Shown: positions 10,463-29,106 of the stretch, piece after piece
How positions within the stretch are numbered: position 1 is the stretch's first letter
How the letters are laid out: each line of letters starts with the position of its first letter
DNA from: a virus
Lineage: Duplodnaviria; Caudoviricetes
Strand: one strand, 5' to 3'
IMG/VR virus record: IMGVR_UViG_3300038556_000010
Location: 1-34,283 of that record
Length of the DNA: 34,283 nucleotides
The notes under the pieces: generated by a model
What the model was told of the DNA's origin: nothing
What the model saw: only the letters and a program-made list of their open reading frames with translations
Database searches by the model: none
Program-made: the position numbers and the translations under genes

Positions 10463-10903
10463 ATGCAGCCTCTCCATCCCCATGTCGCCGAGCTGCGCGC
10501 TTTGCGCGACCTGTTCCGGCGCTATGTCTCGTCCCACCAGCAGCCGACGATCGACGCCTGCCGCGAGCTGACCGTCAAGCTCGGCGCGATGGCGGAGGAT
10601 GCGCTCGTCCTTTCGCTGCAGGCGCGCGTCGGCGAAGAGCTGGAGGCCGTCGCGGCCGACCTCGACGTCATCGCCTACGCCAAGACGGGCGCTCTCGGCC
10701 CGCCCTCGCAAGCGGCGCTGCGCGAGGAGCAGCGCGCCCTGCAGCAGCGGCTCGATACGGCCGGCCCGGTCCGGGCCGGGCGCCTCGGCCTCGCGGCTCT
10801 CTCGGCCCCGATCGGCGACGGCCGCGTCGTCACCTTTCCGAAGGCCCCGCAGCCGCGCCCGGTGCGTGTCGACTGCCAGGGCGACGACGGAGACGCGGCA
10901 TGA
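10463..10903 (+). CDS. Hypothetical protein
   Basis: In-operon 146-aa ORF with GGAGGG RBS. Confidence 0.7.
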   Translation: MQPLHPHVAELRALRDLFRRYVSSHQQPTIDACRELTVKLGAMAEDALVLSLQARVGEELEAVAADLDVIAYAKTGALGPPSQAALREEQRALQQRLDTAGPVRAGRLGLAALSAPIGDGRVVTFPKAPQPRPVRVDCQGDDGDAA

Positions 10904-11175
10904 GCGTCCGGGATCACGACGTGACGGACTACCCGGCGATCCAGCGCCAGCTCGCCGCCTCGATCGAGCGCCGCGCCTGCGAGCGCGGCGAGGACATCCT
11001 CGCAAAGGTCGAGACCCTGCCAGGCCTCGGGCTCGATCAGGGTCTGCGCCATCTCGCTGGCCAGGTCCGCCGCCAGCTCGATCTGCCGCGCGATGCCGCC
11101 CGCGACGGGCGCTTCCTCGGCCATCTCGAACACGCGCTGCGCGATCTCGCGGTCCAGGGAGCGGGCGTGCGATGA
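10900..11175 (+). CDS. Hypothetical protein
   Basis: ATGA overlaps on both sides. Confidence 0.7.
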   Translation: MSVRDHDVTDYPAIQRQLAASIERRACERGEDILAKVETLPGLGLDQGLRHLAGQVRRQLDLPRDAARDGRFLGHLEHALRDLAVQGAGVR

Positions 11176-11672
11176 GCGAGCGTCACGTCACCATCGACAT
11201 GATCATGCAGGCCGTCGGCGCGGTCGCCGGCGTGACCAGGCTCGATCTCACGTCTGATCGCCGGCCGGCCGAACTCGCGGCCGCGCGCTTCGCCGTCTAC
11301 TGGCTCGCCACGAAGATGACGACGCTGTCCTCGGTCGAGATCGGCCGGCTGCTAGGCGACCGCGATCACACGAGCGTGCTCCACGGTCTCGCCCGCGCCG
11401 AGGAACTGCGCGCCACCGATCCCCAGTTCCGCGTCACCACGGACACGATCCTCGCCACGCTGATCGCCGCCGAACGCACCGGCACGCTGCGGCTGGCGGC
11501 GATAGCCGATCCGCTCGCCACCGCCCGCCGGGTGCTCGCCGCGCCCGAGCGCGAGGCCGTGCGCGTCCCCGTCATCGAGATCGTCGCCCTCTGCCGTCTC
11601 GTCGCCGAGACGTTCGGCGAAGAGCCAGACCCTTCCGAGCCCGCTTCAAAGGAGATCGATCATGCAGCCTAA
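11172..11672 (+). CDS. DnaA domain-IV-like HTH protein
   Basis: DLTSDRR...AARFAVYWLATKMTTLSSVEIGRLLGDRDHTSVLHG matches the DnaA C-terminal signature. Confidence 0.85.
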   Translation: MSERHVTIDMIMQAVGAVAGVTRLDLTSDRRPAELAAARFAVYWLATKMTTLSSVEIGRLLGDRDHTSVLHGLARAEELRATDPQFRVTTDTILATLIAAERTGTLRLAAIADPLATARRVLAAPEREAVRVPVIEIVALCRLVAETFGEEPDPSEPASKEIDHAA

Positions 11673-18708: not shown

Positions 18709-19116
18709 ATGGGCGAGGCCAGATGCCGGCGCGACACCGGGCACATTCCCGGCCATATCGAGCGGCCGCGCGAGCGCACGCTGCCGCCGCTCTGGCTGCT
18801 CGGCCTGCTGGTGCTGGTCGCCGCGCTGGCCGCCTGGCTCTCGCCGGCCCGCGCCCATTCCTTCTACCCGTGGGAGTGCTGTTCCTCGCAGGATTGCTGG
18901 CCGACGGGCACGGGCGCGGACGCCCGCGAACCCGATCCCGTCGCCGGCCCCGGAGGCTGGCGGCTCTTCGACGGCACGATCGTGCCCTACGCCGCCACGC
19001 GGCCTTCGCCGGACGGCCGCTTCCATGTCTGCCGCCATGGCGGCCGCCTCGCGGGCGGACTGATCACACCGCACGACAAGCCGCCCTGTCTCTGGGTTCC
19101 GCCGAACGGCTCCTGA
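18709..19116 (+). CDS. Cys-rich exported protein
   Basis: Hydrophobic signal ending ARA-H; CCSSQDC, SPDGRFHVC, CLWVPP. Confidence 0.75.
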   Translation: MGEARCRRDTGHIPGHIERPRERTLPPLWLLGLLVLVAALAAWLSPARAHSFYPWECCSSQDCWPTGTGADAREPDPVAGPGGWRLFDGTIVPYAATRPSPDGRFHVCRHGGRLAGGLITPHDKPPCLWVPPNGS

Positions 19117-19127
19117 AAGGATTTCCG

Positions 19128-19625
19128 ATGTTGCTGCTTCGCTTCGCTGTACTCCTCGTCGCCTGCGCCCTCTTGGCGGTGTCCGCGCTGCCCGCCCTGG
19201 CGGCCGATGCCGCGCCCGCCTGGGGCGAGTGGCTGAAGCCCTGGTGGGACATGGTCACGCAAGGGGTGATCGCGGCCGTGGTCATGATGGTCGCGGCCGG
19301 GGCCAAGCGCTGGTTTGGCGTGTCGCTGGAGGAAAGCCACCAGCGCACGCTTCACCTCGCGCTGAAGACCGGCGCGGACGCCGCCTGGGCCAAGCTGATG
19401 CAGTGGACCGGCCAGGGCCTGTCCCGCGAGGAGATCGAGCTGCGCCTGATCTCGGAGACCATCGCCCATGCCCAGGGCGGCGCGGCCGACGCGATCGCCG
19501 TCTTCAACCTCGACGAGGCCGATCCGCGCCTGATCAACCTCGCCATCTCCAAGCTGAAGCAGACTGCCCCGCAGGGCGCTGCCGCCTTCTCGTCGCCGCC
19601 CGAGCTGGCGGCGATCGCCGCCTAG
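19128..19625 (+). CDS. Putative holin / lysis membrane protein
   Basis: AAGGA RBS; two hydrophobic segments; position in the lysis cassette. Confidence 0.6.
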   Translation: MLLLRFAVLLVACALLAVSALPALAADAAPAWGEWLKPWWDMVTQGVIAAVVMMVAAGAKRWFGVSLEESHQRTLHLALKTGADAAWAKLMQWTGQGLSREEIELRLISETIAHAQGGAADAIAVFNLDEADPRLINLAISKLKQTAPQGAAAFSSPPELAAIAA

Positions 19626-20893: not shown

Positions 20894-22236
20894 GCACGCC
20901 GTTGTTCTATCCCTATCAACGCCGCTGGGTCGCCGACAAATCGCGTTTCAAGCTCGGGAAGTTCGCTCGCCAGACCGGCAAGACGTTCACGACGACCTAC
21001 GAGATCGTCGACGACGCATTCGAGGCGGCGACGCAGGGCCGCCGTAGCCGGTGGGTGATCCTGTCGCGAGGCGAGCGCCAGGCCAAGGAAGCGATGGACG
21101 AAGGCGTGAAGCGGCATGCCAAGGCCTACGGCATGGTGTTCAAGGAAGCGGATCACGACTGGCAGGGCGGCGACGGCACCTATCGCGCCATGGAGATCGA
21201 GCTGCCGCACGGCTCGCGCATCACGGCGCTGCCGGCCAATGCCGACACGGCGCGCGGCTTCTCGGCCAACGTATTTCTCGACGAGTTCGCGTTTCACAAG
21301 GATTCGGGCGCGATCTGGAAGGCGCTCTTTCCCGTGATTTCGGCCGGCTGGAAGCTACGGGTCACCTCGACGCCGAATGGCAAAAGCGGCAAGTTCTACG
21401 AGCTGGACACGGCTGCGGACACCCTCTGGTCCCGCCACGTCGTCGACATCTACGACGCGGTTAGGGATGGGCTGCCGCGCGACATCGCCGAGCTGCGCGC
21501 CGGCATCGCCGACGATGACGCCTGGGCGCAGGAATACGAGCTTCAATACCTCGACGAGGCCTCGGCATGGCTGCCCTACGACCTGATCAGCTCGGTCGAG
21601 GACGAGCGTGCCGGCGAGCGTGAGCGCTACGAGGGTGGCGTCTGCTTCGTCGGCGTCGATATCGGGCGGCGCAACGACCTTTTCGTGATCGTCGTGCTGG
21701 AGCTGATCGGCGACGTGCTGTGGTGCCGCGAGATCGTCGAGATGAAGCGGGCGACCTTTGCGGCGCAAGACGCAGAGCTTGATCGCGTCATGCGCTACTA
21801 CCGCATCGGCCGGGCCTGTATGGACCAGACCGGCATGGGCGAAAAGCCGGTCGAGGATGCGCAACGCCGCTACGGTGAGCATCGGATCGAGGGCGTGCTG
21901 TTCACGGGGCCGAACAAACTCGTCCTGGCGACGGCCGGCAAGGAGCGCTTCGAGGACCGCACCATCCGGATCCCGGAAGGTCGGCCGGCTTTGCGAGCGG
22001 ATTTGCACAAGCTGCGCAAGCTGACGACCCTGACTGGCGCGCCACGCTTTGTCGCCGACCGCGACGACGATCACGCCGACCGGACCTGGGCACTGTTCCT
22101 GGCAATCCATGCGGCGGCGGGCGTTGTCGCTGCCTATGGCTACCAGCCGGTGGGGCGTTCAACCGCAGGCGCCTTCGACGAACTCGATCACGACGACGAC
22201 GCGCCGAGGTTCGGACTGCGCGGGAGGATCTACTGA
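20890..22236 (+). CDS. terL: Terminase large subunit (Mu gp28-like)
   Basis: RQTGKT Walker A, VFLDEFAF Walker B, STPNG, GVDIGRRND nuclease. Confidence 0.95.
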   Translation: MSTPLFYPYQRRWVADKSRFKLGKFARQTGKTFTTTYEIVDDAFEAATQGRRSRWVILSRGERQAKEAMDEGVKRHAKAYGMVFKEADHDWQGGDGTYRAMEIELPHGSRITALPANADTARGFSANVFLDEFAFHKDSGAIWKALFPVISAGWKLRVTSTPNGKSGKFYELDTAADTLWSRHVVDIYDAVRDGLPRDIAELRAGIADDDAWAQEYELQYLDEASAWLPYDLISSVEDERAGERERYEGGVCFVGVDIGRRNDLFVIVVLELIGDVLWCREIVEMKRATFAAQDAELDRVMRYYRIGRACMDQTGMGEKPVEDAQRRYGEHRIEGVLFTGPNKLVLATAGKERFEDRTIRIPEGRPALRADLHKLRKLTTLTGAPRFVADRDDDHADRTWALFLAIHAAAGVVAAYGYQPVGRSTAGAFDELDHDDDAPRFGLRGRIY

Positions 22237-23876
22237 TGCCGAGGTTGTCGCGCATTCTCGGCCCCGATGGCGAGCGGATCGACCTCGACGAGCTGTTCGG
22301 CGAAGCCAGGGCGGGCCCCACGCTGACCGGCGTCCGCTCGCCGATCTCGGGCTTCCCGGCCGAGGGCCTGACGCCCAACCGGCTTGCGGCGATCCATCGC
22401 GCGGCGGCCCAGGGCGATCCGCTGGCCTGGCTTGAGCTGGCGGAGGACATCGAGGAGCGCGACCCGCACTACACGTCGGTGCTCGGCACGCGCCGCCGAC
22501 AGGTGGCGCAGCTTCCGACCAATGTCGAGGCGGCCAGCGACGACGCCGAGCATATCCGCCATGCCGACTTCATTCGCGACTGGCTGAAGGAAAGCATCCT
22601 CGACCAGGCGCTGTTCGACATGCTCGACGCGATCGGCAAGGGCTTCTCCGTCATGGAGATCGATTGGGAATCGACGCCCGAGGCGGTCATGCCGCGCGGC
22701 TTCGACTACCGGCCGCAGCGCTGGTTCACCTTCGATCCAATCGATGGCGACACGATCCAGCTGCAGGAAGGCGTCACCCGCGAGCCGCTCTCGGCGCACA
22801 AATTCATCGTTCATCGGCACAAGGCCAAGTCCGGGCTGACGATCCGGTCTGGCCTTGCGCGCGTCGCGTCCTGGTCGTGGATGATGAAAGCCTTCACCTC
22901 GAAGGACTGGGCGATCTACACCCAGAACTACGGCATGCCGATCCGCATCGGCCGCTACGAGCAGACCGCGAGCGACGCCGACAAGGCGGTGCTCTGGCGC
23001 GCCGTCGCCAATGTCGCCGGCGACTGCGCCGCGATCATCCCCAAGGGCATGGAGATCGAGTTCGTCGGTCTGAAGGATTCGGCCAAGGGGAGCGGGACCG
23101 AGGGCTATCTCGCCCGCTGCGACTGGCTCGACCGCCAGATCTCCAAGCTCGTGCTCGGCCAGACCACGACAACCGACGCGGTGTCGGGCGGGCACGCCGT
23201 CTCCCAGGAGCACCGCCTGGTCCAGGAGGACATCGAGCGCGCCGACGCCAAGATGATCTCGGCGACGCTGACCCGGCAGCTCGTGCCGCTGATGATCGCG
23301 CTCAACTTCGGCCCGCAGTCCAAGTATCCCCGCATCATGATCGGGCGGCCCGACGAGGTGCCGCTCAACGATGTCGTCAACGCGCTGGACAAGCTCGGCC
23401 CGCATGGCCTGACGGTCGAGCTGAGCGAGTTCCGCGATCGGCTTGGCTTCTCGGAGCCGGCAGCCGATGCGCAGGTGATCGGCGGCCGCCCGCCCAAGCC
23501 GGAGCCAGCCGCCTTGCCTAAACCCGGCGCTGCTCTCCTGCCCGGCCTGGGCGGCAAGCCGGCCGCGCCGCTCGACCAGCTCCGCCATCTCGTCTCGCGC
23601 CACGCCAGCGCGCCGGAGCCCGAACTGGTCGACGTGCTGGTCGAGCGCCTGGCGCAGGACGCCGCCGGCGCGATGGGCGGGCTGACGGCGGAGATCCGCG
23701 CCGCATTCGACGCAGCCGCCGATCTGCCCGACCTGGCCGACCGGCTCTCGCGCCTGAGCCTCGATCCGAAGGCGCTGGCGGACGCGATGGGCCGGGGTCT
23801 GGCGCTGGCCCATCTGGCCGGCCGGGCGGCGCTTCTCGACGAGCTGGAGGGCGAGCGCGATGGCGGGTCGCGATAG
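22236..23876 (+). CDS. Portal protein (DUF935, Mu gp29)
   Basis: IEERDPHY...DAIGKGFSVME...YGMPIRIGRY...ISKLVLGQT. Confidence 0.93.
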   Translation: MPRLSRILGPDGERIDLDELFGEARAGPTLTGVRSPISGFPAEGLTPNRLAAIHRAAAQGDPLAWLELAEDIEERDPHYTSVLGTRRRQVAQLPTNVEAASDDAEHIRHADFIRDWLKESILDQALFDMLDAIGKGFSVMEIDWESTPEAVMPRGFDYRPQRWFTFDPIDGDTIQLQEGVTREPLSAHKFIVHRHKAKSGLTIRSGLARVASWSWMMKAFTSKDWAIYTQNYGMPIRIGRYEQTASDADKAVLWRAVANVAGDCAAIIPKGMEIEFVGLKDSAKGSGTEGYLARCDWLDRQISKLVLGQTTTTDAVSGGHAVSQEHRLVQEDIERADAKMISATLTRQLVPLMIALNFGPQSKYPRIMIGRPDEVPLNDVVNALDKLGPHGLTVELSEFRDRLGFSEPAADAQVIGGRPPKPEPAALPKPGAALLPGLGGKPAAPLDQLRHLVSRHASAPEPELVDVLVERLAQDAAGAMGGLTAEIRAAFDAAADLPDLADRLSRLSLDPKALADAMGRGLALAHLAGRAALLDELEGERDGGSR

Positions 23877-24020: not shown

Positions 24021-25238
24021 GTGACCGACTACACCGCCACGACCAAGGCGCTGGATCTGCCCTTCGAGGAGGCGATCGAATACCTGCGCCAGAAGAGCAA
24101 CGTCACCTCGACCGGGTGGACCGATGTCTGGCAGAAGGCCAACGCGAAAGCCTTCACGGTAGCCGGCGCGACGACGCAGGCGCTCGTCGAGGATTTCCGG
24201 CGCGAGGTCGCCAGCGCGCTGGAGAGCGGCTCGTCGATCCAGGCGTTCCGCAAGACCTTCGACGCGATCGTGAAGAAGCATGGCTGGGAGCATGTCGGGC
24301 AGCCGGGGTGGCGCTCCCGCGTGATCTTCGAGACCAATCTCGGCATGGCGTATTCGGCCGGGCGCTACGCCCAGGCGACCGAGCCCGAGACGCTGGCCGC
24401 CTTCCCCTACTGGCAATACGTCCACTCCGGCGCGAAGCATCCGCGCAAGCAGCATCTCGCATGGAACGGCACCGTACTGGCGGCGACCGATCCGTTCTGG
24501 GACTGGGCCTATCCGCCCAATGGCTGGGGCTGCGGCTGCAGGGTGCGGCCAGTCTCGGAGGCCGGGCTGAAGCGACAGGGCCGCTCGGGGCTCGACACCG
24601 CGCCGGAGCGCATTCCGACGCAGACGATCAATCGCCGCACCGGCGAGGTACTAAAGGGCTCGGCCGGCGTCGATCCAGGCTTCGACTACAATCCCGGCCA
24701 GCAGTGGAAGAACGCCCCGGCGGTCGCCGTGCCCGGCGTCTCGACGTCGCCGCCGCTGCGCGCTCCTGCGACGCCGGCCGAGATCAGGTCTTTCGCCGAG
24801 GGCGTTCTCAACCGCTCGATCGCGGACCCGGCGCGCTCGATTGTCGCCGCCCGGCTGCCGCCCGCTCTCGCCGAGGCGCTCGGCGGAGCGCTGACCGAGG
24901 TCGAGCTGAACGCGTTCCGCGTCGCCAAGGTCGCTGGCCGCGCGGCCGAGTTCGGCGGCTTTCCCAGCACGCCCCATCCGGAGATCACGCCCAAGGACTG
25001 GGCACGGCTGCAGGACATCATCGATCGCGGCAGCGTCCATCTCGACCCGGCCGTCACCAGCGGCTTCCGCCAGCTCGTCATTCATGATCGCCCGAAAGCC
25101 GGGCGGCAGGTGATGCTGATCCTGCGCCGCGTGCCGCGCCCTGGCGGCGGCGAGCGTCTGATCGTGCCCAATTTCGAGCAGACCGGCTACCGGCGCCGAG
25201 ACAAGGTGACGAAGAGGCTGACGCAGGTGCGGGAGTGA
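24021..25238 (+). CDS. MuF (gp30) head morphogenesis protein with ~150-aa C-terminal extension (putative nuclease)
   Basis: AFTVAG, IFETN, PYWQY...HLAWNG, YPPNGWGCGC, DPGFDYNPG; then HPEITPKDWARLQDIIDRG. Confidence 0.92.
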   Translation: MTDYTATTKALDLPFEEAIEYLRQKSNVTSTGWTDVWQKANAKAFTVAGATTQALVEDFRREVASALESGSSIQAFRKTFDAIVKKHGWEHVGQPGWRSRVIFETNLGMAYSAGRYAQATEPETLAAFPYWQYVHSGAKHPRKQHLAWNGTVLAATDPFWDWAYPPNGWGCGCRVRPVSEAGLKRQGRSGLDTAPERIPTQTINRRTGEVLKGSAGVDPGFDYNPGQQWKNAPAVAVPGVSTSPPLRAPATPAEIRSFAEGVLNRSIADPARSIVAARLPPALAEALGGALTEVELNAFRVAKVAGRAAEFGGFPSTPHPEITPKDWARLQDIIDRGSVHLDPAVTSGFRQLVIHDRPKAGRQVMLILRRVPRPGGGERLIVPNFEQTGYRRRDKVTKRLTQVRE

Positions 25239-25239
25239 G

Positions 25240-25312
25240 TGGGGCGCTTGGGGGGTCGTAACATCCCCGCGGGGCTTGCCCGGCGTACGAAGCAGCTTTC
25301 TCAAGCGCCCCA
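25240..25312 (-). ncRNA. Candidate tRNA-like small RNA convergent with muF
   Basis: 11-bp closing stem, internal hairpins, 3' CCA, and a sigma70-like promoter placing +1 at the stem start. Confidence 0.6.
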
Positions 25313-25316
25313 TGCG

Positions 25317-25345
25317 AATGTGGACTGAAACGGGATCGGATTCAA
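25317..25345 (-). promoter_or_regulatory. sigma70-like promoter for the small RNA
   Basis: TTGAAT-N17-CACATT on the minus strand. Confidence 0.6.
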
Positions 25346-25346
25346 G

Positions 25347-25886
25347 ATGAGCGGCGCGGTCCTGATCACCCGCATGGATGTCCGCGACGCGCAGGCAGGT
25401 TTCGGTCGGCTCGCCGCCGTCATGGCGGACACGACGTCGGTGATGCGCGCGATCGGCACCGGTCTCGTCGCCAACACGCATGACCGCTTCGACGCCGCGC
25501 AGGATCCCGACGGTAAGGCCTGGGCGCCGCTGGAGCCGAACTACGCCGCCAGCAAGCGCGGCCCCGGCATCCTGCGGGAGAGCGCCATGCGCGGTGGCCT
25601 GCAGGGCTCGATCACCCATCGCTCCGGCCGCGCCGAGGTCGAGGTCGGCACCAACAAGATCTATGGCGCGACACACCAGTTCGGCAACGTCATCACCGCC
25701 AAGGGCGGCGGCTTCCTCGTCTTCAAAATCGGCGGCACGCTGGTCAAGGCGCGCTCGGTCACCATTCCGGCCCGGCCCTATCTCGGCATCAGCGCGGAGG
25801 ACCAGGTGATGATCCTCGACGTCGTCGAGGGCGCTCTTGCCCGCGCCGTCGGTTCTAGGTCATCATCCATCACGCGCCGGCGGTAG
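25347..25886 (+). CDS. Mu gpG-like virion morphogenesis protein
   Basis: DPDGKAWAPL...VGTNKIYGATHQFG...IPARPYLGIS. Confidence 0.92.
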   Translation: MSGAVLITRMDVRDAQAGFGRLAAVMADTTSVMRAIGTGLVANTHDRFDAAQDPDGKAWAPLEPNYAASKRGPGILRESAMRGGLQGSITHRSGRAEVEVGTNKIYGATHQFGNVITAKGGGFLVFKIGGTLVKARSVTIPARPYLGISAEDQVMILDVVEGALARAVGSRSSSITRRR

Positions 25887-28544: not shown

Positions 28545-28766
28545 ATGTCCGAGACTGCAGCCGAGACCAAGCCGGCCCCCGGCATCCGCATCATCAACCG
28601 CGCGCATGTGGGCTTCCGGCGCGGCGGCCACTCCCATCCTGCCGACGCGACCTATCCGGCCGATCACTTCACGGCCGAACAGCTCGCGCAGATCGAGGCG
28701 GAGCCGCTGCTCTCCGTCATCGTCGAGGACGGTGCCCAGGTGCCGAAGGGCTCGCGCAAGAAATAA
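28545..28766 (+). CDS. Mu gp35 / HI1506-like protein
   Basis: GFRRGG...FTAEQLAQIEAEPLLSV; GGAG RBS. Confidence 0.8.
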   Translation: MSETAAETKPAPGIRIINRAHVGFRRGGHSHPADATYPADHFTAEQLAQIEAEPLLSVIVEDGAQVPKGSRKK

Positions 28767-28869
28767 CCCAGAGGGCGGTCTGGCACGGCTCGCGAGGCCT
28801 CCAGCACCCTATGGGGACGGCTCGACCGTAGGAACCCAGTTCGCCGCCCGCACGCTTTCGAGAGACGAC

Positions 28870-29106
28870 ATGACCGCTCATGCCGGCCTGCCAGTCGAGG
28901 GATACCGCCCACAAGGCGACGGCGCGGTCGCGCTCGTCAACGCCAACAAGCGCGCCGAGGAGCAGGTGCTTCGCCTGCTCGACGCGCTGGGCGAGCAGCC
29001 CGAAGTCGACAAGCGCTGGCTCGCGATCGGCCGGAGCCAGATCGAACAAGGCTTCATGGCTGTCAATCGCGCCATCTTCAAACCCGCCCGCGTCGAGATC
29101 GACTGA
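28870..29106 (+). CDS. acb2: Acb2-like anti-CBASS cyclic-nucleotide sponge (78 aa)
   Basis: GYR...N..K, RWLAIGRSQIEQGFMAVNRAIFKP aligns by eye with Acb2 (GYR...NRVK, [24 protein letters not shown]). Confidence 0.8.
   Translation: MTAHAGLPVEGYRPQGDGAVALVNANKRAEEQVLRLLDALGEQPEVDKRWLAIGRSQIEQGFMAVNRAIFKPARVEID

Follow-up and report, generated by a model that had tools for sequence, protein, structure and literature searches.

The 34,283-nt stretch of viral DNA analysed here (IMG/VR record IMGVR_UViG_3300038556_000010, positions 1 to 34,283; the window) holds a Mu-like transposable phage or prophage with genes for a repressor, transposase, MuB-like ATPase, GemA, terminase, portal, MuF, gpG, protease I, gpT, and sheath. 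We studied the muF gene, whose product ends in a C-terminal tip, and a predicted small RNA encoded on the opposite strand directly behind it. The closest relatives of the MuF N-terminus were found in Bosea. The muF stop codon ends at 25238 and the ATG of gpG lies at 25347, leaving a gap of 108 bp. As an initial annotation of this DNA had stated, the gap holds no protein gene: no sense open reading frame (ORF) in it exceeded 29 aa, hence no small immunity ORF lies directly downstream of muF. The antisense frames crossing the gap were of 341 aa (24651-25676, under muF and gpG) and 58 aa. That annotation had read TTGAAT-N17-CACATT on the minus strand, followed by a 73-nt element with an 11-bp stem, and its letters and coordinates proved exact. 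It had proposed the element as a candidate self-promoted, tRNA-like RNA antitoxin standing in the immunity position of a MuF nuclease. The features of the locus are listed in Table 1.

Table 1. Features at and around the muF-gpG junction, in window coordinates
Feature	Position	Strand	Remarks
Portal gene	22236-23876		Directly upstream of muF
muF	24021..25238	+	405 aa; Phage_Mu_F at aa 58-175 (Pfam PF04233, E 1e-14) plus C-terminal extension; directly downstream of portal
C-terminal tip of MuF	24771..25235	+	Predicted BECR/PBECR-type RNase; His319 (24975-24977), Asn384 (25170-25172)
Predicted structured RNA, 73 nt	25240..25312	-	Covariation; sole copy within the window
P1 closing stem, 3' strand	25240..25250	-	Ends in paired CCA; CCA not conserved
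P4 hairpin	25251..25268	-	Abuts P1 3' strand; loop holds pseudoknot strand UACGA (25256-25260); 99% of cells paired (alignment A7)
P3 middle hairpin, 4 bp	25270..25282	-	95% of cells paired; 4/4 pairs with two-sided change (alignment A7)
Pseudoknot strand UCGUA, 5' linker	25286..25290	-	Pairs with 25256-25260
P1 closing stem, 5' strand	25302..25312	-	11 bp; pairs with 25240-25250
Predicted -10 box CACATT	25317..25322	-	Family consensus TATATT
Predicted -35 box TTGAAT	25340..25345	-	Family consensus TTG; 17 nt to -10 box
gpG-like gene (Phage_tail_S)	25347..25886	+	In short-MuF relatives gpG abuts the muF stop

Taken alone, the window RNA folded weakly (z -1.9 for 86 nt, -3.2 for the trimmed RNA), and its promoter gave 0 sites in a consensus scan and a shuffle p of 0.16. 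The signal in the window was thus weak by itself and rose above chance only through comparison with relatives. One closely related contig differed from the window at 1 of 73 RNA positions versus 9 of 100 positions in the muF end (p 0.05), a second differed at 3 of 73 RNA positions, and the listed changes in both spared the promoter boxes. Two alignments of the wider family were analysed, one made with MAFFT from 12 copies without fitting to a model (A5), the other of 42 copies fitted to a covariance model (A7), for which the covariation shuffles ignore kinship. RNAalifold returned P1, P3, and P4 from A5, with two-sided change in 15 of 19 pairs. In A7, 88.5% of cells were paired compared to 38-50% in slid controls, and 20 of 25 pairs showed two-sided change, a number reached in 0 of 500 shuffles. 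We further identified a pseudoknot, absent from the structure first annotated, in which the P4 loop pairs with the 5' linker. All three core pairs of this pseudoknot were present in 12/12 copies, one of them switching from U-A (8 copies) to C-G (4 copies). In the larger set the core G-C was kept in 38/38 and the C-G in 30/33, while the third pair was C-G in 16, U-A in 14, U-G in 2, and G-C in 1 of 39. Marks conserved across the copies were AG after P1 (36/42, as AGYCA in 28/42) and CG in the P4 loop (41/42). Rfam returned no match for the element. The RNA family is real and conserved as judged from these alignments, and it is apparently undescribed.

P1 is directly continued by the short hairpin P4, whose stem ends 0 nt from P1 and whose loop is predicted to pair with the 5' linker, a layout that is tRNA-like. 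P4 would be stacked on P1 in the manner of a T-arm on an acceptor stem. The finer tRNA marks of the initial annotation were not borne out in the family. The CCA end it described is base-paired within the window's stem and is single-stranded and free after the stem in only 1/42 copies, its T-arm-like loop has no canonical counterpart (UUCRANY in 0/42), and its D-like arm is an optional insertion. Lacking a conserved CCA end, D-arm, or T-loop, the RNA resembles tRNA in architecture only. ARAGORN found 0 tRNA genes in the window and in 36 loci, so the lack of a canonical tRNA or Rfam match was as expected. The acceptor/T-arm-like layout could also suggest a decayed tRNA gene or the remnant of an integration site. 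This explanation is largely refuted by the negative ARAGORN and Rfam searches and the counts for T-loop and CCA, and the compensatory changes, which indicate ongoing selection, leave it with next to no probability. That the P4 loop might be antisense to 16S rRNA helix 44 was considered and rejected, the motif being present in 1/42 copies.

The promoter was scored in the family with approximate σ70 weights. The site upstream of the RNA outscored the mirror position in 38/42 copies (mean 6.0 versus -0.1 bits; consensus TTG-17-TATATT), including 10 of the 13 copies without an adjacent muF gene (orphans). In muF-linked copies it lies 13-17 nt ahead of the conserved AG. The conservation of structure and promoter that the initial annotation proposed to look for in homologues was thus found. 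At one locus (L077, 1501-1600; loci are given by L and genomes by G numbers), the RNA and its promoter are inverted together and co-oriented with muF, the -35 box lying in the last muF codons. A convergent orientation is thus not supported as the defining trait it had been presented as. Folding energy did not separate the strands (mean z -1.9 versus -2.0). Because the promoter turns with the RNA in L077 and scores best upstream of it in most copies, it is the promoter, not folding energy, that picks the strand. That both strands fold equally, and that the plus strand would have G-U in place of 8 A-C oppositions at the P4 top, would suit a plus-strand cis element acting in the structure, processing, or autoregulation of late mRNA, or a DNA inverted repeat such as a miniature inverted-repeat transposable element. 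We regard both as highly unlikely, in that the promoter follows the orientation of the RNA, orphan copies carry promoters, and G-U oppositions outnumber A-C by 17 to 5 in inner P1, P3, and P4. Moreover, ends bound by a transposase would not covary freely as the terminal repeat does. Two further lines were dropped. A 240-nt contig covering the element at depth 3, from a sample guessed to be RNA, was not used as evidence of expression since contigs show neither strand nor ends, and a generic detector of stems with promoters had no discriminating power, since null loci scored as high as 15 and controls as high as 20.

The MuF tip was modelled with AlphaFold2 from 8 sequences (pLDDT 92). In a wide VIA structure search the best row was BrnT (Z 6.2, root-mean-square deviation 3.5, 77 aligned), followed by a Salmonella toxin-antitoxin (TA) toxin (Z 5.7), CdiA-CT of K. 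pneumoniae 342 (5.4), colicin D (5.3), and CdiA-CT of NC101 (5.1). The top nine rows were all RNase toxins of the TA, contact-dependent inhibition, or colicin kind (Z 4.5-6.2). ToxN and AbiF were not among the rows listed, which does not exclude either fold. Foldseek returned no match for the model at E 0.001. By sequence, the extension had no Pfam match of its own, including the PBECR models, and the tip no match in the PDB. A tblastn search of a phage collection gave none for the window tip or that of L087 and 4 weak matches for a Saccharibacter tip, and HMMER over cluster representatives gave 4 matches, 2 of them credible. The tip family had a profile match of 99.6%, with shared members, and tip relatives scored weakly with PBECR3, PBECR2, and MuF_C. 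The nearest ESM neighbours were PBECR2/MuF_C clusters (0.86), which we take as a lead only. His319, on the N-terminal helix at the place of the catalytic His of PBECR/BECR domains, was invariant in 9/9 tips of a wider alignment (A4) and in 21/21 chosen tips. The strand-4 site that provides the second active-site residue, Ser or Thr, of PBECR domains (Iyer 2017, PMC5512222, in the portion accessible) was Thr in 7/9 tips of A4, and L017 is an example of a relative with Thr. The window tip is basic, with a net charge of +10. Together, the best fold matches of the tip are BECR RNase toxins and the tip is a predicted RNase, in agreement with the RNase initially proposed.

We further investigated which MuF proteins carry the RNA. 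Close relatives of the MuF N-terminus carry no tip, an ART tip, or a tip of the window type, so the tip is exchangeable. Where the tip was close (34-59% identity), the element stood right behind the stop codon at 10/10 distinct loci, and with distant tips at 2/3. A first covariance model (R1) was searched in 151 Bosea-family genomes and a second (R2) order-wide. R1 gave 20 matches in 15 of the 151 genomes; a specificity control of 151 genomes across the phylum gave one marginal match, inside a coding region. A degenerate RNA pattern hit 25 viral loci, 9 of which had the order muF-tip-RNA (7 new, all behind tips of the window type) and 16 of which were chance. Eight of the chance loci were run against R1 without a match, and the exact 17-nt P4 pattern had 0 viral matches. 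An unbiased set of 37 MuF rows was then drawn from the 151 genomes, of which 33 were classed: 10 short MuFs, 2 with ART tips, 15 with His-Pro-type tips, and 6 with PBECR2 tips. Left out of the counts were two loci running off the contig (L008, L138), two with an internal stop (L051, L049), a duplicate of L032 (L045), L136, and two weak MuF rows. R1 matched behind 9/15 His-Pro-type tips versus 0/12 short or ART MuFs (p 0.001, kinship ignored). Within the His-Pro type it matched behind 8/10 tips with the His versus 1/5 without it (p 0.09), and by eye the two His-bearing tips it missed (L121, L125) have a similar stem layout and a promoter. The initial annotation had asked whether the RNA accompanies only MuFs with a C-terminal extension and had named its presence behind short MuFs as one outcome that would speak against an antitoxin. 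None was seen behind the short or ART MuFs; the RNA is not confined to MuFs with the extension, in that about half of the matches found by searching with the RNA first have no adjacent muF. At Bosea loci with short MuFs, gpG followed at the muF stop in 6, and at loci with other tips a small ORF followed in 3. Both ART tips of the unbiased set had an ORF of 54-72 aa behind them. Elsewhere (L001/L113, L116, L010, L011), MuFs with ART or other tips were followed by ORFs of 54-80 aa, which are candidate protein immunity genes.

The tight linkage to His-bearing tips, the basic tip, and the variable loops of the RNA may point to an RNA that aims or activates the nuclease, as its guide or obligatory cofactor, the two being packaged in the virion as a ribonucleoprotein effector. 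The RNA has no long variable single-stranded segment, its loop is constrained by the internal pseudoknot, and orphan copies lack the enzyme, which makes such a role very unlikely; a lysogen-type promoter would also suit protection better. Several loci show the tip and RNA in rearranged form. In L067/L081, the first tip and its RNA are followed 1 kb further on by another tip fragment, which is fused to a fragment of protease I and has its own RNA behind it, an arrangement that looks like cassette exchange caught in progress. The muF stop of L067 falls within the RNA. In L030 and L062 the tip frame reads through the element by stop loss, and in L062 the tip is truncated while a divergent RNA and promoter are kept.

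Orphan copies were found next to mor in Mu-like remnants, next to genes for a methylase or DUF5681, between insertion sequence (IS) elements, and at chromosomal sites, often in tandem as in the arrays of L075 and L079, and some second copies in these tandems have no promoter of their own. In Mu-like remnants the order gemA-RNA-mor was seen in G935 and two copies in G848. In G835 (L143 14900-16974), four or five copies surround gemA-mor, split by an IS element, with no portal or muF gene found nearby. We also noted that the copies in L143, L066, and L146 (15584-15858) adjoin mor in Mu-like remnants, after gemA in two cases. The orphan arrays and the inverted copy of L077 speak for an RNA that acts in trans, and against a core function in cis on the mRNA or as an antisense. 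An antisense role would resemble type I silencing, a convergent transcript running into muF and damping leaky late transcripts while the structure just stabilises it. Nearly all muF-linked copies are indeed convergent, most have no U-tract, the stop of L067 lies in the RNA, and by position the window RNA is complementary to muF mRNA if late mRNA spans the gap. We nevertheless consider this role distinctly unlikely. The RNA of L077 with its promoter points away from muF, orphans have no muF to pair with, pairing does not need a covarying pseudoknot, and many RNAs linked to PBECR2 genes end, by eye, in a hairpin and U-run ahead of the stop codon. Orphan immunity genes are known, and the orphan RNAs resemble them.

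The orphans also bear on an independent tRNA-shaped decoy or regulator, for example one soaking up host defence enzymes that target tRNA, with a tip that merely processes, carries, or binds the RNA and is not neutralised by it. Copies in muF-less Mu remnants, in other mobile elements, and at chromosomal sites would suit such a decoy, as would a single RNA fold serving tips of ~20% identity without tracking them, the lack of a terminator in most copies, and the Asn at the Ser/Thr site of the window tip. A free-standing decoy is not expected to follow tip type, so the linkage between RNA and tip weighs against it: none of the 12 MuFs from this phage group that are short or ART-tipped has the RNA in the slot, and tips without the His are mostly without the RNA. 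We therefore regard the decoy as unlikely.

PBECR2 (PF18810) was present in 22/401 alphaproteobacterial genomes, and the region behind these genes was examined for comparable elements. Behind 27 PBECR2 genes the convergent promoter outscored the plus strand in 22 (mean 8.0 versus 5.2 bits) compared to 2/8 controls (2.3 versus 2.7 bits). The segments from promoter to stop codon folded better than coding controls (mean z -1.48 versus -0.02; n=30, p 0.0005), L038 and L131 being left out for a promoter too close. These elements have different folds, often two hairpins and a U-run, with many U-runs placed before the stop codon by eye. R1 and R2 missed the elements linked to PBECR2 (L028 came closest, E 0.03-0.1), the RNAs of L009 and L064, L121, and L125, all of which were assessed visually or from promoter and folding alone. 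In a near-paralogous pair of PBECR2 genes, L130 keeps the Thr together with the gap, promoter, and structure, and L131 has lost the Thr and is abutted by gpG. Behind a related tip, L009 and L064 (Acetobacteraceae-type) carry a larger four-way RNA of ~105 nt whose 6-bp loop-loop pairing is compensated by eye. The extension to the wider PBECR2 family is weaker than the core result. Separately, L044 and L050 contain stand-alone PBECR2-like genes without MuF, followed by structured convergent elements of ~140-150 nt that share sequence motifs.

From position, covariation, promoter conservation, fold likeness of the tip, the pattern of presence and absence, and the orphan copies, we consider it moderately probable that the RNA behind muF is a trans-acting immunity factor that blocks the predicted RNase tip and replaces the usual immunity protein. 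Of the antitoxin first annotated, the promoter, the immunity slot, and a structure conserved with covariation have stood, without the tRNA marks. A host σ70 promoter would make the RNA constitutively in the lysogen, independently of the late operon. Stacking of P1 on P4 together with the linker-loop pseudoknot would give it a compact tRNA-like shape, which a tip resembling colicin D and CdiA would take for a substrate, so that the RNA would block the active site. The lysogen would thereby be shielded from leaky or induced MuF and from the MuF of incoming kin, and orphan copies and arrays would be kept as protection against the tips of other phages.

Several results count against such an immunity factor. 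On the side of the tip, all fold Z values are below 8 with Foldseek empty at E 0.001, the tip of phage Mu itself is described as inactive in the accessible portion of PMC5512222, and the strand-4 site is Asn384 in the window tip and Asn in 9/11 of the closest proteins, which makes the activity of the window tip uncertain. On the side of the RNA, folding energy does not indicate which strand it is, and a U-run follows the stem in just 8/42 copies, so the 3' end would need processing. The two are also imperfectly linked. No muF adjoins 10/20 Bosea-family matches and 4/6 new order-wide R2 matches, which fits a toxin-independent function as well. Seven genomes have the RNA with no MuF and no tip match; positive controls were detected, and the genomes may be incomplete. 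The element is kept behind tips without the His in L120 (by model) and L119 (by eye) and is missing behind intact-looking tips in L061, L033, and L040, the latter two of the PBECR2 type; its absence from L061 is attributable to IS insertions, and another copy lies elsewhere in that genome. RNA identity tracked the MuF N-terminus instead of the tip (partial r 0.37 versus -0.05, p 0.74, with noisy tip alignments at ~25% identity), thus no cognate co-evolution of tip and RNA was seen.

On a wider scale we hold it possible, short of probable, that phage polymorphic toxins use RNA immunity genes in general: each virion-borne MuF BECR RNase would be blocked by a pseudoknotted, tRNA-shaped RNA, tip and RNA would form cassettes, arrays of orphans in defective prophages and chromosomes would be acquired immunity to incoming phages, and other RNA folds would serve alike behind the wider PBECR2 family.

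Other genes in the window were noted. An ORF at 28606-29106 (+), in the head-gene region, carries an Acb2/Tad1 hairpin domain (PF24729, E 1e-16) and is a candidate anti-CBASS/anti-Thoeris nucleotide sponge. A Schlafen/AlbA_2 protein is encoded at the contig start (329-1576, +), and behind it three related ~20-bp repeats in inverted arrangement (1586-1784) are possibly the left end of the phage or flanking host DNA. An early-region gene (10599-11672, +) encodes a DnaA C-terminal helix-turn-helix domain (E 4e-15). The ORF behind the GH19 lysin (18723-19625, +), with a TrbC/VirB2 pilin match below cut-off, is probably a holin-like membrane protein.

Polymorphic toxins are paired with proteins that confer immunity, and a few type III TA systems have RNA antitoxins that bind protein. 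An RNA filling the immunity slot of a toxin carried on a virion protein would, if true, join both kinds and add the BECR fold to the RNA-inhibited nucleases. It would also settle whether proteobacterial MuF extensions (Ct_MAD, unknown tips), left unresolved in the accessible text of PMC5576092, are toxins and why they have no immunity ORF. A candidate inhibitor of 60-90 nt would make these MuF tips clonable and testable, and the orphan arrays would amount to a small layer of immunity against phages that annotation has missed. Should the antitoxin reading fail, what is left is a structured RNA family that is mobile and has no Rfam match. No RNA partner for MuF or PBECR was found in the open literature; subscription papers and supplements may bear on novelty. 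None appears in the accessible parts of PMC5512222, 10.64898/2026.08.28.747851, PMC5576092, PMC11806420, and the Minerva preprint, nor is one described in 14 of the 16 MuF entries of the table of Fremin 2021 (PMC8040213). That table does place one candidate, HMP2_3504, near MuF and PBECR genes: a 78-nt structured RNA of Clostridia with Phage_Mu_F (63), PBECR2 (23), and PBECR3 (21) within 5 kb and no function in its row.

The locus shares with the MuF polymorphic toxins, as far as the accessible text of Jamet 2017 (PMC5576092) describes them, a MuF domain after the portal, exchangeable tips, a downstream immunity slot, and a temperate phage, the window having portal, MuF, transposase, and repressor genes. 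The slot there holds a small ORF, whereas that of the window holds a predicted self-promoted structured RNA. With the PBECR domains, including MuF-C (PMC5512222), and the colicin-like BECR RNases (10.64898/2026.08.28.747851), both as accessible in part, the tip has in common the helix His, the fusion to MuF, and a predicted RNase function, and its best fold matches suggest a BECR-like fold; the colicin-like members mostly cut tRNA according to the latter source. Unlike PBECR domains, the window tip has no Pfam PBECR match and carries Asn at the Ser/Thr site. As to the RNA, its architecture recalls other small RNAs. In tRNA, the tRNA-like domain of tmRNA, and YrlA, the closing stem stacks on a hairpin of 4-5 bp, and the loop of this hairpin touches the 5' linker. 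In tRNA the T-arm abuts the acceptor stem and the T-loop contacts the D-loop, to which P4 on P1 and the P4 loop with the 5' linker are comparable. Unlike these RNAs, the element has no T-loop, free CCA, or fixed D or anticodon arm, and its contact is a Watson-Crick pseudoknot. In the type III TA systems ToxIN, CptIN, TenpIN, and AbiF-RCd22 (10.1101/2025.04.15.648962, accessible in part), a structured RNA, pseudoknotted in ToxI, neutralises a protein RNase. The window RNA would do alike if it is an immunity factor, its own pseudoknot being predicted from covariation, and would further resemble AbiF-RCd22, which is prophage-borne and acts in trans. Type III RNAs, so far as that source covers them, are repeats upstream of a stand-alone toxin and co-transcribed with it. 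The window RNA differs in that its toxin would be a fusion to a virion protein with best fold matches among BECR toxins, and in that orphan arrays exist. It forms one unit, lies downstream of the muF gene, and has a predicted promoter of its own, which places it outside type III, though if the reading is true it would work like a type III RNA.

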